Shown piece after piece: positions 8,223 to 56,700 of a DNA stretch of 64,000 nucleotides. A program made the position numbers and the translations under genes. Each line of letters opens with the position of its first letter. The stretch's first letter is position 1. The DNA comes from a virus (lineage: Duplodnaviria > Heunggongvirae > Uroviricota > Caudoviricetes). The notes beneath the pieces are model-generated. The model did not search any database and was not told the origin of the DNA. It saw only the letters and a program-made list of their open reading frames with translations. Location: the IMG/VR virus record IMGVR_UViG_3300025299_000102; one strand, written 5' to 3'.

Positions 8223-9125
8223 ATGAAGAAAATAGCAAGTCATGGCGGTTCCTTTCACGCTGATGATGCGCTTGGCATTTCGATGCTGCGCGCGCTGTAT
8301 CCTGATGCGGAAGTTGTTCGCACACGCGACCCGGCCGTTTGGGCTACCTGTGACGCGCTAGTTGACGTCGGCGGTGAACATGACCCCGTGCGCAACCGGT
8401 TCGACCATCACCAGAAGGGCTTTGCGGAGCGTCGCGCAAACGGTATTCCGTACGCAGGCTCAGGCCTGGTCTGGGCTGCCTATGGCGCCCGCTATGTATT
8501 GACCATGGTCGATTGGGCGTCGTACGCCGAAGCTGAAATCATTGCGCGGATGGTCGATGAAAAGCTCATCCAACATGCTGATGCCGTCGACAGCGGTATC
8601 AACGTTCCAGGGTCAATGCACTTCAACCTGTCGGGCATCATCGACACCCTGAACAGCCGCTGGTATGAGCCAGAAGGCGATGATGACCTGCTTTTCGCAG
8701 AAGCAGTTGAACTTGCGGGCACAGTTCTTCGGAACCTGGTGCGTGCGGTCGCAGCTGAATATGCAGCAGCAGACCGAGTTCGTAATGCACAGCAGCTTGC
8801 CGGCGGCCGTATTATCGTGCTTGACGCAGCTCGCCTGCCATACGACCCTGTTGTGGTCAATGAGCTGCCGGACTGCCTCTTCGTGGTGTACCCTGAATCG
8901 ACAGGCAAACAGCACCAGGTCCGAGTTGTTCCGAAGGTTCTGGGTAAGTACGAAGCTCGCGCAGACCTTCCTGAAGCATGGGCCGGCCTTCGTGACGATG
9001 CACTGGCCGCGGCTACCGGTGTCAAGGACGCGGTCTTCTGCCATAACGGTCGCTTCATCTGTGGTGCCGGGTCGAAAGCCGGCGCAATTCGCATGGCTGA
9101 GCTTGCGCTTGAGGCTCTGGAGTAA
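8223..9125 (+). CDS. MYG1/UPF0160 family metal-dependent hydrolase (paralog 1)
   Basis: N-terminal HGGSFHADDALG and DHHQ motifs typical of MYG1/GAMM1 exonuclease family; AAGGAGGA RBS; TTGACG-17-TATACT promoter upstream. Confidence 0.65.
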   Translation: MKKIASHGGSFHADDALGISMLRALYPDAEVVRTRDPAVWATCDALVDVGGEHDPVRNRFDHHQKGFAERRANGIPYAGSGLVWAAYGARYVLTMVDWASYAEAEIIARMVDEKLIQHADAVDSGINVPGSMHFNLSGIIDTLNSRWYEPEGDDDLLFAEAVELAGTVLRNLVRAVAAEYAAADRVRNAQQLAGGRIIVLDAARLPYDPVVVNELPDCLFVVYPESTGKQHQVRVVPKVLGKYEARADLPEAWAGLRDDALAAATGVKDAVFCHNGRFICGAGSKAGAIRMAELALEALE

Positions 9126-9878: not shown

Positions 9879-11105
9879 ATGACCGCCATTCAGCAGGAAC
9901 TGCGTCGCCTTGAAGGTTTGACGCCAGAGGCTATCGCCACGCACTTTTTCGACAACTACGGCATCATCGCGCAGCTGCATCATCACGGCGCGCTATGGCT
10001 GTTTGATTATGACCAACTGGCGGCACACAAGCACCGCATGACCGACATGGTTATGGAGTCCCGGGGGCTAATCCTATGCGCAGAAACCCTGGACATTGTG
10101 CGCCGGCCGTTTGCTCGCTTCTTCAACATCGGCGAGGCGCCAGCCTACGAAAGCGACATCGACTATGAGAAGCTGGAAGCTCTGGAAAAAGTGGACGGCA
10201 GCCTGGTCACGCTCTACTACAACAAGGTCACCAATCATTGGCATTTCGGCACCCGTGGCACTCCGTTTGCGGAAGGCCGCAACCGTCATACGGGAAAGGT
10301 AATGTCCGACCTAATTTCGCGCGCAGCTGGCTTGGTCCACAAGCCAGGTACTTCGGAGTTTGACAAGAACCTGCGCAGCGCCGGAATTCTTGACCCAGAC
10401 GTGACTTATCTGTTTGAGTTCATCGGTCCGGACAATCCCCATGTTACTCGCTACACTGAATCCGAGCTTGTGCTTCTCGGCGCTCGGCGGCTTAATGGCA
10501 TTGAATATACGCCGCAAGAGGTCAACTTCTTGTTCAACCTGTTTACGGCGGTTGGTTGGCGAGTCCGCATGCCAAAGCGCTATCCAATCCCGCTGGCGCT
10601 TGGCGGTCTGGCACGCTCGCTTCAGGTTGAGGCCATCAAGAACTGGGTCGCCTCGGCGCCTGAGTTCAAAGGCTTACATGAAGGTGTTGTATGCATCAAC
10701 GCATCCACCGGAAAACGCCTGAAGGTAAAGACCCCGCTGTACTGCGCTGTTCATCTCCAGGGAGATGAAGTGGAAGGACTCAGCATCAGTAAGGCTCGCG
10801 TTGCAGACCTCATTGTCAATGGGGATGCCGATGAGTTCTGTTTGTACTTCCCGGCGTTGGCGCCAAAGGTGCAAGCCATGGCTGGCCAGGTACAGGCCTT
10901 TATCGAAGGTTTGGCTCCCATTTGGGAAGAAGTCAAGGATATCGCGGACCAGAAGGATTTTGCCGTTGCTGTGCAAGCTAAAGCACCTGGTGCTGCATCG
11001 GCCATCTTCTTCCTTGCTCGCAAGACGGGCGTGACGCCCGCTCAGGCTTGGATGGGAATGCCTTTGAACAAAAAGGCATCGCTGGCCGAGAAGCTGGTGG
11101 GGTAA
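9879..11105 (+). CDS. ATP-dependent RNA ligase, T4 Rnl1-like
   Basis: Nucleotidyltransferase motif I EKVDGSLVTLYY (cf. T4 Rnl1 KEDGSLV); size 408 aa; further KxxG motifs. Confidence 0.7.
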   Translation: MTAIQQELRRLEGLTPEAIATHFFDNYGIIAQLHHHGALWLFDYDQLAAHKHRMTDMVMESRGLILCAETLDIVRRPFARFFNIGEAPAYESDIDYEKLEALEKVDGSLVTLYYNKVTNHWHFGTRGTPFAEGRNRHTGKVMSDLISRAAGLVHKPGTSEFDKNLRSAGILDPDVTYLFEFIGPDNPHVTRYTESELVLLGARRLNGIEYTPQEVNFLFNLFTAVGWRVRMPKRYPIPLALGGLARSLQVEAIKNWVASAPEFKGLHEGVVCINASTGKRLKVKTPLYCAVHLQGDEVEGLSISKARVADLIVNGDADEFCLYFPALAPKVQAMAGQVQAFIEGLAPIWEEVKDIADQKDFAVAVQAKAPGAASAIFFLARKTGVTPAQAWMGMPLNKKASLAEKLVG

Positions 11106-28142: not shown

Positions 28143-28637
28143 TTGCGCACGTCATACGAAGAAGCTGTAAAGCGCGGTTGGATTAAGCCTGATGATGTCC
28201 CGAAAGCGGCCAGGCCCAGTCGCGCCCGAAAAGCTGACATTGAGACTGAAGAGCAGACTGAGGTCATCAAAAAATTCCGGGAGCAGTACCCTGATATCGG
28301 CGAGCTGCTAATTCACCCTCCGAATGGCGGCTTCCGCAAGAATGCATTTGAAGGCTGGCGGCTGAAACAGGCCGGCGTTCGCGCGGGGGTAAGCGACCTG
28401 TTCTTGCCTATTGCACGCGGCGGATATTTCGGCCTGTGGATTGAGTTCAAGGCGGCCCCTCCCAATAACGCTCCCGTGTCCGATAATCAGAAAAAATGGC
28501 TGGAGCTCATGGCGGCGCAGGGATATGCTACGCACATCTGTCTAGGTGTTGAGGCAGCCATGAAGGTGCTCGACGAATACATGGCCCTGCCGCTGACGAA
28601 AGTGGCCCGTACCCGGAAAACCGCCAGCCCGGCCTAA
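28143..28637 (+). CDS. VRR-NUC domain nuclease (PD-(D/E)xK)
   Basis: E..EQ..V...PNGG..R..G..KGV.D...P..G..GLWIEFK...S..Q..W pattern; TTG start with GGAGAGG RBS. Confidence 0.55.
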   Translation: MRTSYEEAVKRGWIKPDDVPKAARPSRARKADIETEEQTEVIKKFREQYPDIGELLIHPPNGGFRKNAFEGWRLKQAGVRAGVSDLFLPIARGGYFGLWIEFKAAPPNNAPVSDNQKKWLELMAAQGYATHICLGVEAAMKVLDEYMALPLTKVARTRKTASPA

Positions 28638-28644
28638 GCACGAT

Positions 28645-29109
28645 ATGCGCATCTCACGACTACTTTCGGCGACGGTGGCGCTTGTGCTTTGTTCCCCTGT
28701 CTTTGCCCAGCAGGCAATCAAGGAACTGAGCGGGGCGCTGACCCTAAATTCCGGGCTGGATTTGACGTACGCAGGTCCAGTTCTCTACCGGGCGACACTG
28801 CATACACGCACTGGCCTAGATTGTCAGTTGACAGGCACATTCACCGTCCGTAAAGGTGCTGAACACAAGCCGCGCTGGCTGGAAGCGCTGCCCAATTCAT
28901 CGTTCATTCATTGCCCAGGCCAGGCTCCGGCACTGGTGTCTGGTCATATTTTCCCGGTGGTTTGGATGCCGCCTCAGACAGTATGGTGCCGGGACAAGAC
29001 GTCCAAGGGCAAATGCCAAGCCTATTCTGCTGCGGCTGGCGCCGGGATTACTGCGCTATGGGTAACTTGGCATGCGATGACAAGTAAGGGTTCCGCTAAA
29101 CGCAAATGA
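28645..29109 (+). CDS. secreted protein
   Basis: Signal peptide LLSATVALVLCSPVFA; Cys-containing. Confidence 0.45.
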   Translation: MRISRLLSATVALVLCSPVFAQQAIKELSGALTLNSGLDLTYAGPVLYRATLHTRTGLDCQLTGTFTVRKGAEHKPRWLEALPNSSFIHCPGQAPALVSGHIFPVVWMPPQTVWCRDKTSKGKCQAYSAAAGAGITALWVTWHAMTSKGSAKRK

Positions 29110-29140
29110 AAACCCGCACCATGAAAGTGCGGGTTGAGTT

Positions 29141-29374
29141 TTAGTGCGATTCCGTTTCGATATGCCACCAGCCACGGTGTTCAGTCTCACCATCGGCCGA
29201 CATCACGCACAGCTCGCCTTGATTGACCCCGTCACGGATGAGGGTTTCGATATGCTCAATTGAGCATTCGTCCAGCTCAGTCGGTGGCTGGATTTCGCCG
29301 ACCGCGCGCACAAACCACGAAATGCGGTGCTGCAGGATTTCGGTGATGTTGTTGCCCTTTTTCATGATGTTCAT
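29141..29374 (-). CDS. hypothetical small acidic protein (77 aa)
   Basis: ORF preceded on minus strand by terminator 29107-29140. Confidence 0.4.
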   Translation of the reverse strand: MNIMKKGNNITEILQHRISWFVRAVGEIQPPTELDECSIEHIETLIRDGVNQGELCVMSADGETEHRGWWHIETESH

Positions 29375-29544
29375 GGTTGCCCTTTAGAGTGCTTGAAATT
29401 GAGATGACCTACGTTGAAGTATAGTGCGCAACATGCAAAGCGAGAACTAGCACTAATTTCAGTGATAACTCACTGACTTAGCATTGCCGTATGTGCTGTT
29501 TTCAGCTATAATAGTCACATATTCAATGCACCACTTCTTTCGCT

Positions 29545-30468
29545 ATGATTGACTCCCTCAGCATCAAGCCGCAGGCTGAAAGTGTCCTGCCTTGGGCCGC
29601 GAAGCTTGACTATTTCAAGGCCCACCCTGTGACCGAATTCAAGCCGGGTTTGAACATCCTATTCGGACTCAACGGGTCGGGCAAAAGCACCGTACTGCAA
29701 CTACTGGCCACGACCTTGGCTGCTGCCCAAGGCGGCACGTCGGTGGTGACGTCATCCTGGATGAGGGAAGTGCTGGGCTTCGATGATAAAGGTCATAAGG
29801 TTCCGTGCGAGGTCGTTCACGATGGGCAGCCGGTGATGTTCTTTGATGCTCGGGCACAGGAAGGCCTGATTGGCGGCTCGTTCGATGACGACTTCTTCAA
29901 TCTGGGAGTTGCTAACTCGATGGCCAAGGGCTCGACCGGCCAACTTAACCTGCGGCGCCTCGACAGGCTGCTCAGTGTACTGGTGGAAAAGCGCGCCAAT
30001 CCCGAATCTGGCAAGACGCAAAAATCGCCTGCGGATAAACCGAAACGAGTCGGCCGGACTGCCAAGAGCTTTGAGCGCAAAGCTTCAAACCAAAGTCTTG
30101 TTCCAGAAGGATTTCCAGAGGAAATCGTATGGAAGGTGTCACGTGGTCATGTAAATGACCACTGGGCCAATCGCTTCGCATTGATTGAAGAACTGCTGGC
30201 GCCTAAGCGCGCATCCGGACCAAAGACCCTAATTTTCGACGAACCTGAATCGGGCTTCTCGCTGCCCTGGCAAGCTGGCTTGTGGGCAAACATCTTTTCG
30301 AGAATCGACCCTGCCAAGTTCCAGGTCATCGTAGCCACTCATAGCCCATTCGCATTGGGTATCCCAGGCGCGAACTACATCGAAATGAGTCCAGGCTACT
30401 TGGCCGAAAGCATTGCAGCAACGCTGACGCTGTTTGAGCGTCCAATTTACCATTCGGAGACCAAATGA
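29545..30468 (+). CDS. minimal ABC/SMC-type ATPase (AAA_21-like)
   Basis: Walker A GLNGSGKST, Walker B LIFDEPESG, C-terminal VIVATHSP(F) motif typical of RecF/SMC-like and OLD/Abi-type ATPases. Confidence 0.65.
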   Translation: MIDSLSIKPQAESVLPWAAKLDYFKAHPVTEFKPGLNILFGLNGSGKSTVLQLLATTLAAAQGGTSVVTSSWMREVLGFDDKGHKVPCEVVHDGQPVMFFDARAQEGLIGGSFDDDFFNLGVANSMAKGSTGQLNLRRLDRLLSVLVEKRANPESGKTQKSPADKPKRVGRTAKSFERKASNQSLVPEGFPEEIVWKVSRGHVNDHWANRFALIEELLAPKRASGPKTLIFDEPESGFSLPWQAGLWANIFSRIDPAKFQVIVATHSPFALGIPGANYIEMSPGYLAESIAATLTLFERPIYHSETK

Positions 30469-31310
30469 AGGCCCCTATCCGCTTGCCGCATGATGCAACC
30501 AGTGAGGCGGAAGTTCGCCAATATTTCGACACCCGCGCGCGCCAGTTGTTGCATGAAGATTTCCGATGGTCCGGGACCCTGAACTGGGCCTCTGGGTTCG
30601 AGGGGGACGTGTATCAAACCACATTCATTGAGCTCGGCAAAAACCCCTTTGCCTCCTACTTTATCCTGCCGCATGCTCGCGGCAAGGGCATCCTGCGCAG
30701 ACTGGTTGAGCGCGGCACGCCTATCGTCACTGTGCCTGACTGCAATATCGAAGAAGCGCTCAAGCACGTCGGCGCGAACTACCGCCTGGCCGGCCGGCTG
30801 ACCGAGACCGTTGAGTACCGGCTCATTCAGGCCGACTATGGCAGTAAACGTGCCCAGCGCAGCCAGGTGTTCCTCATGAACCACATCGACGAAGGTTTGG
30901 CCGTAATGGCTTGGGCCGGCGCGTCTGAGCGAGCCATGCGTGCGTTCTGCCTGCACCCGCTGGTTCAGGATGATGCGAGTCTGTCCCTGAACTTCGAGCG
31001 AGTCGCCCTGGAGGTGACTGCGCAACCTGACGGTGCTGCAGTTCTGGCGCTTGCGATGGAGTATCGCTCCGTGGCCAATGAATACCTGGCTCACTGCGTT
31101 ATGCGGCCAAATGGCATTCGGTTGAGCCCAGTGCAGGACGTGAATCAGATGCTTGTCGGCGACAAGGTTCAGAACTTCAAAGACTTCCAGCAGTACCACG
31201 CAACGACACATGAAAACCGCGACCGCCTGACCGAGTATTTCCAGCAGTGGGTCACCGCCCTGGGCGTCGCGGATAAGTATGAAACCCTGAAATCATGGCT
31301 TCCGGCCTGA
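30465..31310 (+). CDS. hypothetical protein, translationally coupled partner of the ATPase
   Basis: ATGA start/stop overlap with upstream ATPase; 281 aa; no known motif recognised. Confidence 0.5.
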   Translation: MKAPIRLPHDATSEAEVRQYFDTRARQLLHEDFRWSGTLNWASGFEGDVYQTTFIELGKNPFASYFILPHARGKGILRRLVERGTPIVTVPDCNIEEALKHVGANYRLAGRLTETVEYRLIQADYGSKRAQRSQVFLMNHIDEGLAVMAWAGASERAMRAFCLHPLVQDDASLSLNFERVALEVTAQPDGAAVLALAMEYRSVANEYLAHCVMRPNGIRLSPVQDVNQMLVGDKVQNFKDFQQYHATTHENRDRLTEYFQQWVTALGVADKYETLKSWLPA

Positions 31311-31331
31311 CCTAACCTCACGGAGATTGAA

Positions 31332-31712
31332 TTGAGCCATCCACTTCTCGACCTCGTTAAGTTCAACAAAGACCATCCACCGCGCGACCAAGGCGACGGT
31401 GCATGGAGTCCCCGTCACGTCTATACGCTGTTCCGCAAGCCATGTGAACGCGTCCAGCTCACCATTGAGCAGGCGAATGATATTGGCCACGGGCTATGGC
31501 GTGATGAAGAGCTCTCCAAGGCCGGCATCTTTGCCTCCGACGCCGACTCGCTGGCGTTTGCTGAGAGCCTGAACGCAACCCTCGGTGAGCACCTGTCCAT
31601 CCGCAACCTGGAGCATCTCGTGAAAGTGTTCGCTGGCGAGCTGGCGGCGCGCGAGGCGGCGCGCCAGGCTTCCCTCAGGGCCTCTAATTCACCGCAACTG
31701 GCGGCGGCATAA
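31332..31712 (+). CDS. hypothetical protein (126 aa)
   Basis: ORF 20 nt after previous stop; followed by bidirectional terminator 31733-31751. Confidence 0.4.
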   Translation: MSHPLLDLVKFNKDHPPRDQGDGAWSPRHVYTLFRKPCERVQLTIEQANDIGHGLWRDEELSKAGIFASDADSLAFAESLNATLGEHLSIRNLEHLVKVFAGELAAREAARQASLRASNSPQLAAA

Positions 31713-31772
31713 CGGATACTCTGAAAAGAAAATGCCCCGATATCATCGGGGCAGAGTTTGAACGTGTCCTAA

Positions 31773-32243
31773 TTAGGCCGGCCAGATGCCTTGTTGCACC
31801 TCGCTGACGATAAATGCCGGATTCTGTTTTTCGAACCAGTGCCAGATGTCTTCACGAGGAGTGCCTGGCTGGAAGTTTAGAAACTCGCTCTCGATTTCGT
31901 CGTCAGCGAACTGGTCCGAACCTTGTGCCACGGGCACATCCTGCAGCAACTCCCACAAAATCTTCAGCTCTACCATGGTTCGGCCAACGACAGGGTGCGA
32001 AGCAGCCTTCACTGCGATATAGCACGAATTCCGCACCATTTCGTAGAATAGAGACTCGTCGGCCGGAACTTCGTCGAGGACTGCCGGCGAGATATTGCAT
32101 AATTCGCCCACCATGTTGCCTACGGACGATTCGCTGGTCAGGGCGCGCGATATTGCATCACGCGGGTCATACGCAACAACTTTCCCCGTCGAGTAGATTT
32201 CACCAGAAATAACGGTCCATGCCCAGGTAGTTTTCTGTTTCAT
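31773..32243 (-). CDS. hypothetical protein (156 aa)
   Basis: ORF. Confidence 0.5.
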   Translation of the reverse strand: MKQKTTWAWTVISGEIYSTGKVVAYDPRDAISRALTSESSVGNMVGELCNISPAVLDEVPADESLFYEMVRNSCYIAVKAASHPVVGRTMVELKILWELLQDVPVAQGSDQFADDEIESEFLNFQPGTPREDIWHWFEKQNPAFIVSEVQQGIWPA

Positions 32244-39532: not shown

Positions 39533-40489
39533 ATGACGACAACTGTCAAACTAATCACGCATGACCGCGTGGTCCATGCGGACGATGCATTTGCTGTGGC
39601 AATCCTGCGGATTGCCTTTGGCGAAGTGGCTGTAATTCGTACCCGTAACCCTGAAATCCTCTATGTCGAGGCAGGGAAGCCGGATACATTCCTGCTCGAT
39701 GTAGGCGGGCGCTACGACCCTGAACAGCGCCTGTTCGACCATCACCAGCCGGAAGGTGCAGGTTACCGCAACATGCAGGTTTCGCCTCCAGAATGGCCGT
39801 ATGCAACTGCTGGCCTGGTCTGGAAGCATTACGGTGCCCAAGCCGTTCGTGCGCTGCATCCGTTTCTGAACGAAGAAGGTGTTCAAGAACTGGTGCAGCA
39901 CATCGACGACATCCTGTTGAAGTACATCGATGCGGTCGATTGTGGCGTACGCCTCAAGACCTCCGGACCATCCGTGTCCGCAATTATCGGTAGCTTCAAC
40001 TCGGCCTGGTTTGAGAAGGAGGAGGATGCGTTTCCACTGGCGAATTCTGTCGCCCAGGTGATTCTGTCCAACTTCATCAAGCGCCATGCCGGAAAGGTTC
40101 TGGCCCGTGACAAGGTGCGTCATGCGGAGTCTCGCATGGATGGTCGTGTACTTCTGCTGGAGGAATGCGTTCCTTGGGTTGAAGTTGTCATGGATGAAAT
40201 GCCCGACGTGATGTTTGTCGTGTATCCAGTTCGTGATGAATCGGAGACCATCCTCCAATGGCAGCTGCGTGCGGCGGCCAACAAGGATAAAACTCCACGT
40301 GTGATGCTCCCTCAAGCCTGGGGCGGGTTGGAGCGCAATGCTCTGGCACGTGTTTCTGGCGAACGAGATGCTGTGTTTTGTCACCGTTCGCGGCACCTCG
40401 CCGGAGCTATGTCTCAGGAAGGTGTCATGCACATGGCTGACATGGCAATTCGTGAGCACGTTCAGTCCGCGGAGCTGTTGGCCGCGTAG
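39533..40489 (+). CDS. MYG1/UPF0160 family metal-dependent hydrolase (paralog 2)
   Basis: THDRVVHADDAFA and DHHQ motifs; collinear with 8223..9125 product. Confidence 0.65.
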   Translation: MTTTVKLITHDRVVHADDAFAVAILRIAFGEVAVIRTRNPEILYVEAGKPDTFLLDVGGRYDPEQRLFDHHQPEGAGYRNMQVSPPEWPYATAGLVWKHYGAQAVRALHPFLNEEGVQELVQHIDDILLKYIDAVDCGVRLKTSGPSVSAIIGSFNSAWFEKEEDAFPLANSVAQVILSNFIKRHAGKVLARDKVRHAESRMDGRVLLLEECVPWVEVVMDEMPDVMFVVYPVRDESETILQWQLRAAANKDKTPRVMLPQAWGGLERNALARVSGERDAVFCHRSRHLAGAMSQEGVMHMADMAIREHVQSAELLAA

Positions 40490-43129: not shown

Positions 43130-44520
43130 TCCTCAAGTCAGATTCAAACCAGTTAGGTGTTTTTCCACTTCAAGGTATAGTTCCAGGAACGTAAAAACCC
43201 CGGTTGACCCGGGGTTTGAGGTTAGCCGCGGCGAATTTCGCCGGCATATTCTTGACGTCCGCCCAGCCCTAAAGGGCAGGGATTCCTGCTGCCAGGCCCG
43301 CACGTCCGCGGGCGAGGATGTTCTTGGCGGCATTGACATCGCGGTCGTGTTCCGCGTTGCAAGCACAGCACTGCCATCCTCTTATTCCAAGACCTGCGAC
43401 ACCTTTCGGCCCCGTGCGTGAACCGCAGCACGAACAAGTCTGGGTGGAAAACGCTTCATTGACTTCCTCGAACCATACGCCGGCGTCAGCGCACTTGTAC
43501 TGCAGCATGGTTCGGAATGCACGCCAGCCGGCATCGAGCACGGACTTCGCCATGCCGGTTTTTGCCAGGGCGGCCGCATTCACGTTGCCTACGAAGATAG
43601 CACCATACTCGCGTGCGAGCGTGGTACTGAATTTGTGCAAGGCGTCCTTGCGCCTGTTTGCTATTTTTGCATGCAGGGCTTTGACGCGTTGTTTCTTATT
43701 CGCCCGCTGAGCCATCGCCAACGCCGGCTCCAGGTCCCGATAGAACCGGTTTGCCTCGAGTGTCTCGCCAGTGCTGAGCGCAGCGAAGTCTTTCAGGCCC
43801 AGGTCGATACCGACTTCCCGGGTGGTGGTACTGCGCGCTGGCTTGGAGAACTTGACCGTAACGTTCAGGTACCAACGGCCACGGCTATCCTCGCTGAACG
43901 AGCCAGGTCCCAGTTCGAATTGGCTTAGGCTGTAGCTGTCCCACAGCGAAAACGGTTGACCACAATACCAGAGCTGGCCCTGTCGGTATCGCAAGGCTGA
44001 TGCCTTAAACGGTACCCAACCTAATGACCTGCGTGCGCCACCTGATTTGCGCCAGGCCAACCGCCGTTTATTAAATTGTCGCCGCCGAGTGACCAGTTCC
44101 TTGCTAATTGCCTGTACCGTTTGCGAATGGAGTGATAGACCTACTTTTGTCGCACCTGACGTGTAGCGGTCCAACTCAATGTTTGAGCAGAATCGTCCCT
44201 CGCGTTCTAACACTTTTACAGCTAGCTCGTTACAGAAGTTCCACACGAAGTTAACTTCCCGAGCCTGTGCGCGCAAGAACGCACTGTGCTTGTCTTTCAG
44301 TCTAAGGCGCAAGGTTCGTATTGTCGACGAAGAACTACTGGTCATATGTACAGTATATTCGATGCCCGCCGTATCAGCAAGTCACTGGATGCGCCCAACA
44401 TCCCCGGCCTTTAGGCCGGAGCCTTCGAATACCTCTTTGAGCCTGCCTGCGACTAACGCATCCTTCAGTTCACCGCACCGGACATAGCCCAGGCTTGGAG
44501 TTATTGCTCATAGGTATAAG
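43130..44520 (-). mobile_element. IS200/IS605-family insertion element carrying only tnpB (IS1341-like)
   Basis: TnpB ORF flanked by subterminal hairpins (AAACCCCGGttgaCCCGGGGTTT 43196-43218; CCCCGGCCtttaGGCCGGAG ~44395-44415; GGCCGtttaGCGGCC ~44523); boundaries approximate. Confidence 0.55.
43269..44345 (-). CDS. tnpB: TnpB (OrfB) RNA-guided endonuclease-type transposase accessory protein
   Basis: 358 aa; RuvC-like residues and C-terminal zinc finger CSCCGS...CCACNAEHDRDVNAAKNI typical of IS605 OrfB. Confidence 0.8.
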   Translation of the reverse strand: MTSSSSSTIRTLRLRLKDKHSAFLRAQAREVNFVWNFCNELAVKVLEREGRFCSNIELDRYTSGATKVGLSLHSQTVQAISKELVTRRRQFNKRRLAWRKSGGARRSLGWVPFKASALRYRQGQLWYCGQPFSLWDSYSLSQFELGPGSFSEDSRGRWYLNVTVKFSKPARSTTTREVGIDLGLKDFAALSTGETLEANRFYRDLEPALAMAQRANKKQRVKALHAKIANRRKDALHKFSTTLAREYGAIFVGNVNAAALAKTGMAKSVLDAGWRAFRTMLQYKCADAGVWFEEVNEAFSTQTCSCCGSRTGPKGVAGLGIRGWQCCACNAEHDRDVNAAKNILARGRAGLAAGIPAL

Positions 44521-52746: not shown

Positions 52747-55203
52747 TTAGCGATACACGGCAGCCAAGGCCACGCATAAATCTTTCACCGCGTCCGCCGG
52801 CGCAGCACCATTACTGGTGGTCATCATGCGTAGCAGCGGAAACCGTGTCAGCAGATTCCTGTACACCAGGTCATAATTCACCATGCCCTGGTGCTTCAAG
52901 CGCTCCAGCGAATCCAGAAGTTCCGTGCGGTCCTTCGTATCCGTTGGCTGCGCAGCCAAGTGATTGCCAAAGCGGATTAGACCACCGCAAAGTTTGCCGA
53001 AGTTCTGATTCACAATTGCGGACTTATGCAATTTAGTGGTCCCAGTTAGCAAATCGACGTGAGGTGAAATCTCCTTGTCGAACTGCGTTCCGGTCAACTC
53101 CAAGCGGGGGCTCTTTGCTAGCATCTCGCACAGGTTGGTAAACTGCCAGCATTCGGATACTTGTCGAACCTTTTTCCCCGCCAGGACGTTTTGAACGTCA
53201 GGGCGAGCAACTAGCTCCGATAGCAGGGCCTCCACTGGTTTCCAGGATTTAAGAGCTTTGACTTCAGCTATCGTTGCTTCGTCGATTTCGTTGTCAATGA
53301 AATCGGCCTCGCTCATCTCAAGTAACCCTTCAGCATCGGCTTCATCAATCGCTTGACGAAGTTCTGCTGCTTGTTTGGGATTGAGAAGATACAGGCGGTC
53401 GACTTTCACAGCCTCCAAAATGTGCTCAAGTCCGCCTTCCGACCCGTAACTAGCGTGCAAATGGCCAAGCTGGGAATCTTTAGCAAAGCCGGCCAGCGCC
53501 CCGCCATCCTTTTCCAGCCACACGCGAACAGGCTCCGTGGTGCTGATAGCCATCATGTTCATCGGCTCCGTCACCTGCTTGTCCGCTTTAACAGAGAAAT
53601 ACGTCAAGGCAGCTCGCCGGCTCACTGAACTACGTGAACCTGCTTCCCGCGGTACGTCCGGCATTTTCGAGGTGAGTATAATTTCCAACTCACCAAGGAA
53701 TGCTTTCGAGACCGAGTCAGCCGCTGCTTTCGCTTCGCCAGCAACGGTTGAAGCAAAAAAGATGAACTGACGATGCTTGTTGTTGTTCACCCAAGCTCGA
53801 GCTCGCTGCGTTCCGCCAGACTTCATGTCATCCACCAGCAGGATGACGGGGTCATTTGCGATGAAGGTCTGTGCAACGTAAGAACCTTTTTCAGCAGGAA
53901 TCGCAATTCGGCCAGAAACTACATAGGCCGCACGCATAGTTCCACTTCCCTTGCTGGTGTATTTCAACTTCAGGTCGTCTCCCGACGCTGAAATCGGCAT
54001 ACGCAGCTTGCCATTCCACTCATACCCACCTGTAGCCGTTTTCAGCGTCTTGTTAAGCACATACTCAATTTTCTCCTGCGGTGTGTTCTTGATGTACTGC
54101 TGCCGGGTGCTCTTCGCAAACCAATGCCAGGCCTCGGTATTTCCGAGCAGATTAGAAAGCAAAGCTCTAGGTGTTAGGCCAGGCAAGGAATATAGCTCCT
54201 GCGCCTTCGCAACAACAGCTTTTCCGGCTGCAGCGTCTATGCGTTTCAAGAGTTCGTTTACTTCGTCGGTGTATTTAATTTCTTCACGTGACGGCATGAA
54301 CGGAATCTTGAACGACATCGGGACCTCAACTACCATTCCCTCCTCAAACACTGACTCCACGTCGGTAGGTGTTTGAACATGGAAAGGCAAGCCGCCTACG
54401 CCAAATTCTTTGTTAGTCATGACCAACAAAGAACCCTTCTGCGTGCCCTGACGATGGTACTTCAGATTCGACCCCTTCATGGGGTAAACACGAACCCCTT
54501 TCAGACCCGAATCCACCGTTCCCAGGTCCAGTACTGTGCCCGAGAATTCTGGCAGCATGGTTGGTAGGGCGCCGAGGTTGTCCACTGTGAAGGAGTCTCC
54601 CATAGTCAGCTGCATCACTTCTTTCAGCCAGGCCACAGCCCGCAGAGCTTCAGCGATGTCAGTTTCTTTGACAGGGAAGTACACCCTGGTTCCAACTACA
54701 GAGCCCGGCACCTCAGAGGCCTTTTGCACACGAGGCTTCAAGCCGTCGCCCTGGAATTGGAAGTAAGTACGTTCCACCATGTCACTTTCGTGGCAGGTAG
54801 TGATGTAGCACTCACGGATATAACCGTAAGCTGCCCATCGCCCTACGCCCAGGCCGCCGGCCGCGTTGTTATCGCCTTCCTTAGTTGATTTGCCAAACGA
54901 CAGATAACCGTTAGGGTCTTCCATGAAGGTCTGCGTCATGCCAGAGCCTTTGTCGATGACGGTAATCATCGGATTAGCGATGGTCGGCAACTGCACCAGT
55001 ACGCCTTCAGCGAACGACAAACCAGCACGTCGCGACGCATCACAGGCATTCTGAATGGCCTCACGAATGGCCGACATCAAGATGAACGCATACACTGTGG
55101 ACAGCATCTCCATCAGTGCACCATTCAAGTTGACCGTCGCATCCATCGCGCTGCCCATTGCCGTCACATCCGCCTTTTTCGAGTCGGTTGCAATAATTGC
55201 CAT
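52747..55203 (-). CDS. GHKL-superfamily ATPase, Hsp90-like N-terminal domain (818 aa)
   Basis: N-box REAIQNACDA (cf. Hsp90 RELISNASDA), G1 IDKGSGMT, G2 GGLGVGRWAAYGY (cf. GQFGVGFYSAF). Confidence 0.6.
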   Translation of the reverse strand: MAIIATDSKKADVTAMGSAMDATVNLNGALMEMLSTVYAFILMSAIREAIQNACDASRRAGLSFAEGVLVQLPTIANPMITVIDKGSGMTQTFMEDPNGYLSFGKSTKEGDNNAAGGLGVGRWAAYGYIRECYITTCHESDMVERTYFQFQGDGLKPRVQKASEVPGSVVGTRVYFPVKETDIAEALRAVAWLKEVMQLTMGDSFTVDNLGALPTMLPEFSGTVLDLGTVDSGLKGVRVYPMKGSNLKYHRQGTQKGSLLVMTNKEFGVGGLPFHVQTPTDVESVFEEGMVVEVPMSFKIPFMPSREEIKYTDEVNELLKRIDAAAGKAVVAKAQELYSLPGLTPRALLSNLLGNTEAWHWFAKSTRQQYIKNTPQEKIEYVLNKTLKTATGGYEWNGKLRMPISASGDDLKLKYTSKGSGTMRAAYVVSGRIAIPAEKGSYVAQTFIANDPVILLVDDMKSGGTQRARAWVNNNKHRQFIFFASTVAGEAKAAADSVSKAFLGELEIILTSKMPDVPREAGSRSSVSRRAALTYFSVKADKQVTEPMNMMAISTTEPVRVWLEKDGGALAGFAKDSQLGHLHASYGSEGGLEHILEAVKVDRLYLLNPKQAAELRQAIDEADAEGLLEMSEADFIDNEIDEATIAEVKALKSWKPVEALLSELVARPDVQNVLAGKKVRQVSECWQFTNLCEMLAKSPRLELTGTQFDKEISPHVDLLTGTTKLHKSAIVNQNFGKLCGGLIRFGNHLAAQPTDTKDRTELLDSLERLKHQGMVNYDLVYRNLLTRFPLLRMMTTSNGAAPADAVKDLCVALAAVYR

Positions 55204-55524: not shown

Positions 55525-56700
55525 ATGACTATCACTTGCCTGAGCCAGGTTGCATTGCATTGCAAAGACGGTAGCAGCGACAAGCTGTACATTATCCAGG
55601 TGCAGGAGGAGACTACTGCGGCTGGAACTAAGTACAAGACTGTGGGCTACTACGGTCGTAGGGGCGGCACCTTGAACACCTCTCAGAAGTTTGAGGGGCC
55701 TAGTCTCGCAGCCGCAAATGCGAAATCCAATGCCTTGGAAAAGGAGAAGCGGGGCAAGGGTTACGACGACTATACAGACCCAATTCCTGGGATGCCTTCG
55801 GCTGCACCTAAGTTCGGCGGTCCTGCGGTGGCATCTGCTGCGGCTGCAGTAGCTGCTGCGGTGCCCCCTAAGAAGGCATCCGTAGGGCCGCTGCCTATGC
55901 TCGCTGAAGTCGCGGACGAAGCTCGTGCAGAAGTGCTGATGTCCGACCCAGACTGGGTGGGGCAAAAGAAGTACGACGGTGAGCGCGTGACGGTTTCTAT
56001 TCGTCGAAACGGTATCCAGGCATATAACCGAAAAGGCGAGGAGCGCGCACTGTCCGGGCCGGCAGAAGCTTCTTTGAAGCGACTGGTTGCACGTACGGAC
56101 TTCAGCGATGACCGTGAGACGGTTCTCGATGGTGAACTGATGGGTGACGTGTACGTTGCCTATGACGTCCTTGTTCTGCGCGATAACGACATTCGCAAGA
56201 CGTCGTACGAAGAACGTTACTATCAGCTGGAAGCGCTGCTCGAAGACAACCTCGGGCTGCTGGCCGAAACCGCCTGGACCGAAGAGGCAAAGCGTGCCAT
56301 GTACGCTCGTGCCTTGAAAGAGGGTTGGGAAGGCATGATGTTCCGTAATGTGGAAGGCAACTACGTTACCGGACGCACGCCGCTCCTGCTGAAGTTCAAG
56401 CTCTGGGCTACTGCAACTTGCCGTGTTTTGACGGTGAACTCGAAGCGTTCTGTTCAACTCGCCCTGCGAGACGAACACGACAACGAACAGTTCTGCGGCA
56501 ATGTCACGGTGCCGGTCAATCAGGACATCCCTACCGGCGATGACCTGGTCGAAGTTCGCTACCTCTATGCAATGGAAGGTGGCAGCTTGTACCAACCAGT
56601 GCTGATTCGTGTGCGTACAGACATCGATGAGGCAGACCTGCGTTCAACCCTGCGACAAGCACCGCCAGAAAAGCGTGAACCTCTGGCTGCTGCCGCATAA
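55525..56700 (+). CDS. ATP-dependent DNA ligase with N-terminal WGR domain
   Basis: WGR-like KLYIIQV...VGYYGRRGG...KGY; ligase motifs KKYDGERV (I), DGELM (III), EGMMFR (IV), LLKFK (V). Confidence 0.8.
   Translation: MTITCLSQVALHCKDGSSDKLYIIQVQEETTAAGTKYKTVGYYGRRGGTLNTSQKFEGPSLAAANAKSNALEKEKRGKGYDDYTDPIPGMPSAAPKFGGPAVASAAAAVAAAVPPKKASVGPLPMLAEVADEARAEVLMSDPDWVGQKKYDGERVTVSIRRNGIQAYNRKGEERALSGPAEASLKRLVARTDFSDDRETVLDGELMGDVYVAYDVLVLRDNDIRKTSYEERYYQLEALLEDNLGLLAETAWTEEAKRAMYARALKEGWEGMMFRNVEGNYVTGRTPLLLKFKLWATATCRVLTVNSKRSVQLALRDEHDNEQFCGNVTVPVNQDIPTGDDLVEVRYLYAMEGGSLYQPVLIRVRTDIDEADLRSTLRQAPPEKREPLAAAA

Follow-up and report, generated by a model that had tools for sequence, protein, structure and literature searches.

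The analysed DNA, hereafter called the window, is a single stretch of 64,000 nucleotides, and the locus of interest comprises two co-directional genes on its plus strand: an ATPase gene (ORF A, 29545–30468, 307 aa) and a gene for a partner protein (ORF B, 30465–31310, 281 aa). Translation appears to pass from the first to the second through a GGAG Shine-Dalgarno sequence (30456–30459) and an ATGA stop/start overlap (30465–30468), together spanning 30456–30468 on the plus strand. Homologue matches (260 for the ATPase and 665 for the partner) show that both genes are real. An earlier note on this DNA had described the two reading frames, the Walker A, Walker B and ATHSP motifs and the ATGA overlap, all of which were confirmed in position. 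The note had also given the pair its own promoter. A promoter-like sequence, TTGCCG-17-TATAAT (29484–29512, plus strand), is indeed found 32 nt 5' of the ATPase start and agrees with the consensus in 10 of 12 positions, but such sites occur in the region at chance level (2 observed versus 2.4 expected), and it therefore points to a promoter only weakly.

Downstream of the partner gene lies a third co-directional ORF of 126 aa with a TTG start (31332–31712, plus strand), which is preceded at a distance of 6 nt by a GGAG sequence (31322–31325). Its product matched no family among the Pfam, PHROG and NCBIfam profiles. Two related loci (L057 and L302) keep this ORF, L005 has a truncated form and L217 has none; it probably shares a transcript with the ATPase and partner genes. 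The pair had been regarded as an autonomous cassette bracketed by terminators, and both GC-rich hairpins exist. The left one (29111–29135), with a terminator-like score on either strand, lies between a plus-strand ORF (28645–29109) and a minus-strand ORF (29141–29374), the latter separating it from the promoter-like site. The right one (31733–31753) lies between the third ORF and a minus-strand ORF (31773–32243), and since its T-run is on the minus-strand side, it primarily serves as terminator of this convergent gene. Moreover, because the third ORF precedes the right hairpin and the minus-strand ORF follows the left one, the "cassette" holds more than the pair, and the idea of an autonomous unit of just two genes had to be abandoned.

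As judged by its motifs, the 307-aa product is a minimal ATPase of the ABC/SMC superfamily, as the earlier note had stated, and it is complete. It matched Pfam AAA_21 well above the cut-off (E 3.9e-12; 47.3 bits versus 27 bits) in two stretches, one covering the P-loop and the other the Walker B/H-loop region. In an alignment of 51 homologues, the Walker A/P-loop GLNGSGKST (residues 41–49, 29665–29691) contains invariant N43, G46, K47 and S48, the Walker B and D-loop sequence LIFDEPESG (residues 229–237, 30229–30255) invariant D232, E233 and P234, and the H-loop ATHSP (residues 264–268, 30334–30348) invariant H266 and S267. Going by position, Q62 (29728–29730), within AAAQGG, is probably the Q-loop residue, both Q62 and G63 being invariant, and GSTGQ (residues 129–133, 29929–29943), at the N-terminus of helix 131–146, would represent an ABC signature-like motif in which S130 and G132 are invariant. 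A basic, low-complexity insert (about residues 147–200, 29983–30144; all these features are on the plus strand) is present in close relatives only, is modelled with pLDDT values of 55–84 and appears as a gap in homologues at about 40–45% identity. The ATHSP sequence had been taken as a hallmark of the RecF/SMC-like ATPases found in defence systems; the H-loop is there, but the structure lies at least as near to the heads of transporters, SMC or UvrA as to the OLD and PtuA ATPases of defence. The PADLOC search that had been proposed gave partial matches of the ATPase to AriA and PtuA models, but none for the partner. Among PDB sequences, the ATPase matched AriA with an E-value of 3.9e-5. In a tblastn search of isolated phages the ATPase found no match.

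The ATPase might instead serve an ABC transporter, of a housekeeping or cargo kind, as its nucleotide-binding subunit, its adjacency to the partner being irrelevant. This possibility is brought up by JGI auto-annotation of the ATPase as "EcfA2" and by NCBIfam P-loop matches to transporter ATPases. These matches remained far below the cut-offs, however, with scores of no more than 24 bits where 172–700 bits are required. The family is also found on jumbo-phage contigs, and it has a reduced helical subdomain with the family-specific motifs HDGQP and FDDDF. Together with the lack of any conserved gene beside the ATPase in 57 loci, these features make a transporter role highly improbable.

The partner had been described as a protein of no recognisable family and not an obvious TOPRIM or HNH nuclease. 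It is indeed neither of these, and its fold is of the HD type. The lack of a family applies to Pfam, NCBIfam and PADLOC, but not to PHROG: residues 115–273 match phrog_21276 with an E-value of 8e-50, and the fold is recognisable. According to its AF2 model (pLDDT 97.1), the partner is composed of a GNAT-like N-domain and an HD-fold C-domain resembling that of RSH hydrolases. The N-terminal alpha/beta domain (residues 1–110, 30465–30794, plus strand) is probably a truncated GNAT fold in this model. Its order of elements (beta-beta-beta-helix-beta-helix-beta) and an R-G-x-G sequence ahead of a helix are compatible with the topology and the acetyl-CoA motif A (R/Q-x-x-G-x-G/A) of GNAT acetyltransferases; the motif-A-like sequence is RGKG (30678–30689, plus strand), in which R72 and G73 are conserved in 93% and 88% of the sequences, respectively. 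On the other hand, the domain comprises only about 110 residues and is without the N-terminal beta1-alpha1-alpha2 arm that is usual in GNATs. The window partner itself had no Pfam GNAT match; several members of its family gave sub-threshold matches to Acetyltransf_7, _1, _3 and _10 (six to Acetyltransf_7), matches to the four families not being deduplicated. The GNAT-like domain is present in 28 of the 87 sampled partner loci and in most top-scoring cluster representatives. JGI and UniRef label partner homologues as GNAT.

The C-domain (residues 111–281, 30795–31307, plus strand; phrog_21276) is all-helical, and in the model its nearest structural relatives are the small alarmone hydrolases (SAHs), SpoT and MESH1. 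A profile-profile hhalign comparison with MESH1 aligned 156 columns (E about 0.007), in which the NH, H(D/P), DKxxN and EYFxW elements were matched; the MESH1 profile was low in diversity, with only vertebrate MESH1 among the matches listed. With single sequences, hhalign aligned the DKxxN/EYF region only. Conservation of the partner residues was determined from 133 sequences. H140 of H140-I-D-E143 (30882–30893) is 99% conserved and stands opposite the MESH1 metal ligand H35, and E143 (96%) is a near-invariant acidic residue specific to the partner family. D233-K-V-Q-N237 (31161–31175), conserved to 98–100%, stands opposite D122-K-L-Y-N126 of MESH1 (motifs HD5/HD6). Thus H140, D233, K234 and N237 all align with MESH1 motif residues and are at least 98% conserved, in an alignment whose E-value is only 0.007. 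The equivalent of the HD1 arginine may be R129 or R132: hhalign sets R129 opposite R24 of MESH1, and the invariant R132 is a few residues off that column.

The central motif, in contrast, is altered. H164-P165-L-V-Q168-D-D170 (30954–30974; all three motifs on the plus strand) stands opposite the HD...ED motif of MESH1 (H61 D62 T V E65 D66), with a proline in place of the ligand aspartate D62 and a glutamine in place of the catalytic glutamate E65, and these replacements are themselves conserved (H164 98%, P165 99%, Q168 98% and D170 90%). The roles of the MESH1 active-site residues have been described, and the E65A mutation inactivates the enzyme (bioRxiv 10.1101/325266). Aph1 is inactivated by an HD-to-AA change. 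Since the equivalents of both D62 and E65 are replaced in the partner, canonical alarmone hydrolysis by it is doubtful. One consequence might be that the HD-fold domain is catalytically dead and acts as a sponge or decoy for an alarmone-like nucleotide, or as a binder of a host RSH-pathway protein. The invariant P165 and Q168 would agree with this, as would the retention of the base- and phosphate-contacting residues D233, K234 and N237 and of the invariant R132 near the R24 column. However, about 20 polar residues of the partner, including H245, H249, E143, E199 and D240, are 94–100% conserved, and D170 90%, which resembles a working catalytic centre, and a carboxylate to make up for the lost ligand might come from H140-x-x-E143. 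We therefore consider a dead domain unlikely.

At the sequence level the partner family is isolated. It forms 1,169 representative clusters at 50% identity, many of them on jumbo-phage contigs, and three independent fusions with NUDIX domains were found. The window partner did not match Pfam HD_4, which was reached by only 2 of 55 family members (best E 0.021), nor did it match any PDB sequence. The partner has the RSH-type HD fold, as modelled, and is without HD_4 sequence membership, the HD dyad and the ED pair. Near the partner, no RSH synthetase, toxSAS, Apk-type synthetase or known defence gene was seen. Searches of the literature on jumbo-phage alarmone hydrolases and on ppGpp hydrolases in anti-defence gave nothing relevant to this family.

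Whether the two genes travel together bears directly on the earlier proposal of a two-gene system of ATPase and effector. The partner was found beside the ATPase only in the window, in L003 (identical), in L005, in L057 and in L302. About 57 other loci of the ATPase family (at least 180 bits) are without the partner, and none of the 87 other partner loci has the ATPase within 5–6 kb by profile search, with nothing even at E ≤ 10 in L217–L221. L217 is syntenic with the window: a VRR-NUC gene is followed directly by the partner and then by Metallophos and Topo IA genes, and the ATPase is absent. In L302 an 87-aa ORF intervenes between ATPase and partner, showing that the ATGA overlap is not conserved, and in L303 the ATPase occurs in a different context. 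No gene recurred beside the ATPase (57 loci) or the partner (90 loci) in more than 8 loci. At an Achromobacter locus, two candidates for an equivalent of the partner, namely the gene 3' of the ATPase and a GNAT gene close by, proved unrelated to it. About 15 more pairs of ATPase and partner matches were found on contigs of equal length, a proxy for co-occurrence with coordinates unchecked, with ATPase identities of about 56–75%. Every examined pair belongs to one syntenic element lineage, so that common descent explains their linkage. Co-occurrence across diverse contexts, as expected of a conserved two-gene defence system, was not found, and we conclude from the independent gene distributions, the missing ATPase in L217 and the extra ORF in L302 that the pair is not a conserved two-gene module.

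A module restricted to this lineage is a different matter. Here the ATPase would sense or regulate and the GNAT/HD-fold protein would be the effector of an abortive-infection/exclusion or anti-defence system of two genes, or of three with 31332–31712. Such a module would be consistent with the same-strand arrangement, the overlap with its Shine-Dalgarno sequence, the promoter-like site upstream and the retention of the pair in the window, L005, L057 and L302, to which the pairs of unchecked adjacency on equal-length contigs may add; moreover, in defence systems AAA_21 ATPases often serve as sensors or scaffolds, in line with the partial PADLOC matches. Nevertheless, the confinement to a single syntenic lineage, the solo occurrence of both genes elsewhere, the partner without ATPase in L217, the broken overlap in L302, the blindness of PADLOC to the partner and an ATPase structure as close to transporter as to defence heads all argue against it, and we regard it as quite improbable. 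The ATGA overlap, the good Shine-Dalgarno sequence and adjacency in at least four distinct loci leave room for a functional link specific to the lineage.

The window had been taken as phage DNA. Proof of this was not obtained: PHROG and Pfam searches of 20 large ORFs and of 10 near the locus revealed no capsid, terminase, portal or tail genes, and megablast of the locus and of the 24 kb surrounding it against INPHARED phages and PLSDB plasmids yielded only 214 bp in a Caballeronia plasmid. A search of IMG/VR for an exact 43-mer from the window likewise gave no match. The same profiles detected no plasmid replication or conjugation genes in the 20 large ORFs of the window. Identical ATPase and partner proteins occur on metagenome contigs of up to 572 kb, and relatives are found in Burkholderia and Paraburkholderia. 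The locus is probably carried by a giant Burkholderiales-associated element. A literature search for an element of Burkholderia ubonensis some 0.6 Mb in size brought up nothing relevant.

The reading that we favour, with moderate confidence, is that ATPase and partner are accessory genes of a very large element, separable in function, which happen to lie side by side and to be co-translated in this sub-lineage, and that the partner acts on a nucleotide signal. The ATPase would then be an orphan, catalytically complete AAA_21 head without effector domain or dedicated partner, presumably dimerising around ATP like other ABC heads and acting on some other, possibly host, target. Of the two genes, that of the partner is the more constant in this neighbourhood, with its usual position beside a VRR-NUC nuclease gene. 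The protein may bind a nucleotide carrying a 3'- or 2'-(pyro)phosphate, such as (p)ppGpp, (p)ppApp, a signal related to these or the pyrophosphorylated end of a tRNA, and either cleave it at a rewired metal site, in which H140, E143, H164 and D233 would replace H, H, D and D, or sequester it. Either activity could weaken the stringent response of the host, or abortive infection that relies on alarmones, while the element replicates. By analogy with phage stand-alone SAHs, which neutralise toxSAS toxins (PMC7229694), the partner is probably a host-manipulation or counter-defence factor directed at nucleotide alarmones. The role in defence or anti-defence that had been assigned to the pair as a module was not upheld, but anti-defence is plausible for the partner alone.

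A more far-reaching proposal, which we offer tentatively and think rather unlikely, is that the combination of a GNAT-like domain with an "HP/Q" RSH-hydrolase fold defines a class of factors from jumbo phages and giant elements that has not been described before, is isolated in sequence and neutralises an alarmone-type signal or pyrophosphorylated tRNA in a non-canonical manner. Such factors may work through the rewired metal site or by sequestration, and the GNAT-like domain might couple this to acyl transfer; in the lineage of the window, an orphan ABC ATPase may have come to control the partner. The partner family is the by-product of greater interest. It includes phrog_21276 and has no entry in Pfam, NCBIfam or PADLOC, and if it acts on alarmones or related nucleotides, a large unannotated clade would be added to the phage-encoded alarmone hydrolases. 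If this is true, jumbo phages, and giant plasmid-like elements too, would seem to face a common obstacle in the stringent response or toxSAS-type immunity. The altered catalytic centre also provides a natural test of how far the HD/ED machinery is needed for catalysis. For genome scans, the lesson is that an ATPase and an unknown protein joined by an ATGA overlap resemble a defence cassette; comparative genomics here shows two independent genes that came together in a variable insertion slot.

Compared with known systems, the window ATPase shares the ABC head, Walker A, Walker B, the ATHSP H-loop and its place in Pfam AAA_21 with the defence ABC ATPases (AriA of PARIS, PtuA of Septu, GajA of Gabija and class 1–2 OLD), but at 307 aa it is without a coiled-coil, TOPRIM or other appended domain, its matches to these proteins are confined to the P-loop and about 50–70 C-terminal residues, and no AriB/TOPRIM, PtuB/HNH or GajB neighbour accompanies it. 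PARIS was rejected since the AriA models cover only the P-loop and residues ~223–269, while PADLOC does not match the partner, whose fold is HD rather than TOPRIM. Septu was rejected because the PtuA matches are partial (15.8 bits versus an NCBIfam cut-off of 500) and no HNH neighbour was found, and OLD/Gabija because the protein is a head only, the GajA model matches only the P-loop and no helicase neighbour was found. With regard to ABC-transporter nucleotide-binding domains (NBDs) and soluble single-head ABC proteins (BtuD, PhnK/PhnL and CcmA), the ATPase differs by having no conserved neighbour gene, by its own conserved motifs, by its phage and giant-element contexts and, in this lineage, by the disordered basic insert; membership of the transporters was rejected on the low NBD scores and on the lack of a conserved neighbour across the 57 loci. 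A toxSAS-SAH type IV toxin-antitoxin system or an Apk-Aph pair was likewise rejected, as the neighbouring ORFs contain no RelA_SpoT/SAS domain and the 90 partner loci share no conserved neighbour. In comparison with the SAHs and RSH hydrolases (MESH1, RelH, PaSAH, Aph1 and the phage proteins PbcSpo and PaSpo), the partner replaces the signature HD aspartate with an invariant proline and the catalytic glutamate of the ED pair with an invariant glutamine, and further invariant residues are peculiar to its family (E143, E199, R201, N205, D240, H245 and H249). The partner nevertheless keeps the equivalents of H35, H61, D122, K123 and N126, and in many phages its C-domain family, like the known phage SAHs, occurs as stand-alone proteins (about 170 aa).

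ORF A (29545-30468, +), encoding the 307-aa ATPase, and ORF B (30465-31310, +), encoding its 281-aa partner, share an ATGA overlap; a GGAG precedes the ORF B start ATG by 5 nt. The ORF pair with its overlap and the Walker A (GLNGSGKST, 29665-29691), Walker B (LIFDEPESG, 30229-30255) and ATHSP (30334-30348) motifs, all on the plus strand, were present exactly as an earlier note on this DNA had described them. Both products are real proteins: several metagenome contigs, of up to 572 kb, encode them in identical form, and 260 homologues of the ATPase and 665 of the partner were found at E<=1e-3. The pair had also been regarded as an autonomous cassette with its own promoter, bracketed by terminators. 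A sigma-70-like site (TTGCCG-17-TATAAT) does exist at 29484-29512 (+), but such sites are no commoner around the locus than expected by chance (2 found, 2.4 expected). GC-rich hairpins are likewise found on the left (29111-29135) and on the right (31733-31753), but the T-run of the latter is on its minus-strand side, indicating that it mainly serves as terminator of the convergent gene at 31773-32243. Moreover, the hairpins enclose two ORFs that had been overlooked, a third co-oriented one (31332-31712, +; 126 aa, TTG start, GGAG 6 nt upstream) preceding the right-hand hairpin, and a small one, ORF77 (29141-29374, -), between the left hairpin and the promoter-like site.

To find both families in other loci, HMMs were run over the six-frame ORFs of fetched loci (49 from GTDB genomes, 80 from metagenomes and 160 from IMG/VR, plus look-ups). 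Among these, adjacency of ATPase and partner was limited to the window, the identical locus L003, the B. ubonensis locus L005 and the metagenome loci L057 and L302. Synteny with the window is seen in L005 (Band_7, a 264-aa ORF, VRR-NUC, ATPase, partner ... topoisomerase IA) as well as in L057 and L302. The partner was absent within 6-7 kb of the ATPase in about 57 other family-level ATPase loci (>=180 bits, 32-55% identity), which include Achromobacter, Variovorax, Burkholderiales MAGs and ten IMG/VR contigs of 83-380 kb, and no other ATPase neighbour was conserved in more than four of them. Likewise, none of 87 other partner loci (28 full-length, 59 C-domain only) had the ATPase within 5-6 kb. 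The arrangement in L217, a syntenic locus with a 56% identical partner (VRR-NUC, partner, Metallophos, ..., topoisomerase IA), is decisive against the pair, as the partner there directly follows VRR-NUC and the ATPase is lacking. The reading of the two genes as a defence or anti-defence module is therefore not supported, although the observation behind it was largely correct.

The space between VRR-NUC (28143-28637) and the partner (28638-30464 in the window) differs in content among L217, L005, L302 and the window, and thus constitutes a variable insertion slot. In L217 nothing occupies it; L005 has the ATPase there, and L302 has the ATPase together with an 87-aa ORF, which parts the two genes and shows that the overlap is not conserved. 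In the window the slot comprises ORF154 (28645-29109; signal-peptide-like N-terminus MRISRLLSATVALVLCSPVFAQQ), a hairpin, the minus-strand ORF77 and the ATPase; of these, ORF154 and ORF77 occur only in the window, with no counterpart in L005, L057, L217 or L302. A local functional link of the ATPase with the partner would agree with their being co-transcribed and translationally coupled in the window's lineage; considering the many loci in which either gene stands without the other, we regard it as unlikely. The adjacency is best explained by a slot insertion in one lineage and not by an ancestral functional pair.

The ATPase is an orphan AAA_21 member of an already known type (Pfam, E 3.9e-12; 47.3 bits versus a cut-off of 27). 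PADLOC models of AriA, PtuA and many further ATPases matched in part, solely within the P-loop and the final ~50 residues of the head; NCBIfam gave P-loop matches only (<=24 bits versus cut-offs of 172-700), and the top PDB sequence match was AriA (E 3.9e-5), over two short stretches. In an alignment of 51 homologues the Walker A Lys, Q62, S130-x-G132 (signature-like, at a helix start), D232-E233, Q243 and H266 were invariant, and the motifs HDGQP and FDDDF were particular to the family. The protein is a complete minimal ABC head, and its ATHSP, previously taken as a hallmark of defence ATPases, is an ordinary H-loop; none of its features links it to those ATPases in particular. A basic Pro/Lys/Ala-rich low-complexity insert after the signature helix (residues ~147-200; 29983-30144, +), modelled with low confidence and predicted to be disordered, is kept only in close relatives (at least about 43-50% identity) and missing from ~270-aa relatives. 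A 53% identical ATPase is carried by a 143-kb contig binned as 'Candidatus Saccharibacteria' (PBTC01000014.1), which has several neighbouring genes in common with a Burkholderiales MAG contig and is probably a mis-binned mobile element.

The window further encodes NAD synthase, an SPFH protein, VRR-NUC, topoisomerase IA, PhoH-PIN, 5'-nucleotidase, an AAA_5 ATPase, an S49 peptidase and a 5'-3' exonuclease, as well as an RNA/nucleotide repair-type set: two MYG1-family exonuclease paralogues (8223-9125 and 39533-40489), a T4-type RNA ligase (9879-11105), a DUF2828/DUF7788 VWA protein (18549-19925), a class-II aminoacyl-tRNA synthetase (21262-22527) and a WGR-domain ATP-dependent ligase (55525-56700). 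A TnpB/IS605 OrfB-type gene (43269-44345, -) has OrfB_IS605 and Cas12f1-like TNB domains, and a similar gene is found in two Achromobacter loci. An 818-aa RIIA-like HATPase_c_3 protein (52747-55203, -) matches PHROG RIIA lysis-inhibitor families (phrog_612, E 2e-29). In locus L303 the ATPase adjoins a comparable gene of 798 aa, accompanied by PcfJ-like genes. Another gene, kept in L005 and L057 (32349-32930, - in the window), encodes a 193-aa protein that carries a signal peptide and an extended Ala-rich stretch; its C-terminus weakly matches the STM0539 family (E 1e-4, below cut-off). A scan of large ORFs detected no capsid, terminase, portal, tail or plasmid genes, and the window had no match in INPHARED, PLSDB or IMG/VR except for 214 bp in a Caballeronia plasmid. 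Homologues of both genes lie on contigs of similar size (572, 596, 611, 615, 619, 631, 640, 643, 668, 699 and 720 kb), some of them from B. ubonensis, B. multivorans and Paraburkholderia isolates, indicating that the host is a giant element, phage-like or a megaplasmid. This suggests a family of ~0.6-0.7-Mb replicons with phage-like nucleic-acid genes. The 920-kb pC3 of B. ubonensis is a different element.

The partner had been said to belong to no recognisable family. This holds for Pfam, NCBIfam and PADLOC, but residues 115-273 match phrog_21276 (function unknown; E 8e-50), and the fold resembles RSH hydrolases; no paper describing the family was found. By tblastn, the C-terminal part is a stand-alone 160-190-aa protein in 48 phage records (among them Pseudomonas Iggy/PBPA162-like, PA5oct, the vB_PpuM series, Xanthomonas XacN1 and Xoo-sp13, Stenotrophomonas phages), and full-length matches occur in Tenacibaculum phage PTm1; no ATPase adjoining the partner-type gene was found in these phage genomes. 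An exhaustive profile search gave 1,169 cluster representatives, 1,032 of them at E<=1e-10, and the near absence of weak matches indicates a sizeable family, isolated in sequence from canonical RSH hydrolases. An AlphaFold model (55-sequence alignment; pLDDT 97.1, pTM 0.93) comprises an alpha/beta domain (1-110) and an all-helical domain (111-281). Structure matches, with their values as tabulated, were Leptospira small alarmone hydrolase (SAH; 7qoe, 13.4), human MESH1 (5vxa, 13.1), SpoT (7qpr, 13.0), RelH (7qoc, 12.6), TdActApo2 (7p1y, 12.3), P. aeruginosa SAH (6z3n, 12.2), the (p)ppApp hydrolase Aph1 (7smg, 11.8), B. subtilis Rel (8acu, 11.1) and Mn-free SpoT (7qps, 9.9). Among 55 members, two matched Pfam HD_4 weakly and 6, 3, 1 and 1 matched four GNAT families weakly; close homologues are named GNAT in JGI and UniRef. 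The N-domain order is beta-beta-beta-[RGKG]-helix-beta-helix-beta, with R72 (93%) and G73 (88%) conserved. A C-terminal NUDIX domain in three independent members or clusters (P0244, P0283, P0269) fits nucleotide-pyrophosphate chemistry.

An N-terminal M23 peptidase is fused to family members in three other clusters (P0233, P0290, P0318); an M23 gene also lies directly upstream of the partner-type gene in XacN1 and nearby in 7 of 90 loci, with L002 3410-4498 noted among these M23 cases. A glutamyl/glutaminyl-tRNA-synthetase-like gene is found 1-2 kb upstream in 6 of 90 partner loci (viral ones, e.g. L267, 2846-4261), possibly hinting at a tRNA-related role or at jumbo-phage clustering of translation genes.

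Profile-profile alignment of 133 partner-family C-domains with a MESH1 alignment (156 columns, pairwise E ~0.007; human sequence identical to 3nr1_A) superposed N139-H140 on MESH1 N34-H35, H164-P165-L-V-Q168-D-D170 on H61-D62-T-V-E65-D66-T, D233-K-V-Q-N237 on D122-K-L-Y-N126, and EYF..W on EYFEW. In MESH1, H35, H61, D62 and D122 bind metal, the E65A and D66K changes severely impair the enzyme, and N126 touches phosphate (bioRxiv 10.1101/325266); the same residue set defines motifs HD1-HD6 of RelH (PMC9293644), and an HD to AA change abolishes Aph1 function (PMC10083569). Among the 133 unique family members, conservation was 100% for R132 and D240, 99% for H140, P165 and N205, 98% for H164, Q168, D233, K234 and N237, 96% for E143, E199 and R201, 95% for H249, 94% for H245 and 90% for D170. 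The family thus retains the fold and most of the site, with fixed Pro and Gln replacing the canonical Asp and Glu; H140-x-x-E143 might supply the absent carboxylate ligand.

The best overall account of both genes, which we favour by a small margin over even odds, is that gene A codes for an orphan ABC ATPase, independent of gene B, and that the gene B product would be a factor aimed at a nucleotide signal. Its RSH-hydrolase-fold pocket would bind a 3'- or 2'-(pyro)phosphorylated nucleotide, and either cleave it at the rewired metal site or sequester it, so that the stringent response or alarmone/toxSAS-type abortive infection would be damped while the element replicates. The GNAT-like domain may bind acyl-CoA or serve as a regulatory or substrate-recognition module. 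We put the alarmone-directed role itself at slightly under an even chance. The main interest, moderate overall, is the unannotated, widespread SAH-like family and not the pair.

As to known systems, the pair, when tested for membership, did not qualify as PARIS, Septu, Gabija/OLD, an ABC transporter or a toxSAS-SAH module, and we are confident that no dedicated two-gene system exists here and that the fold assignments hold. As judged from the model, the partner is folded like an SAH and may work in a similar way, but it fails HD_4 sequence membership and lacks the HD/ED residues, and was therefore filed as a variant SAH-like type, whose novel traits are the fusion to a GNAT-like domain and the HP/Q site. 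Its proposed damping action would be that of known stand-alone phage SAHs, which neutralise every toxSAS toxin tested (PMC7229694).
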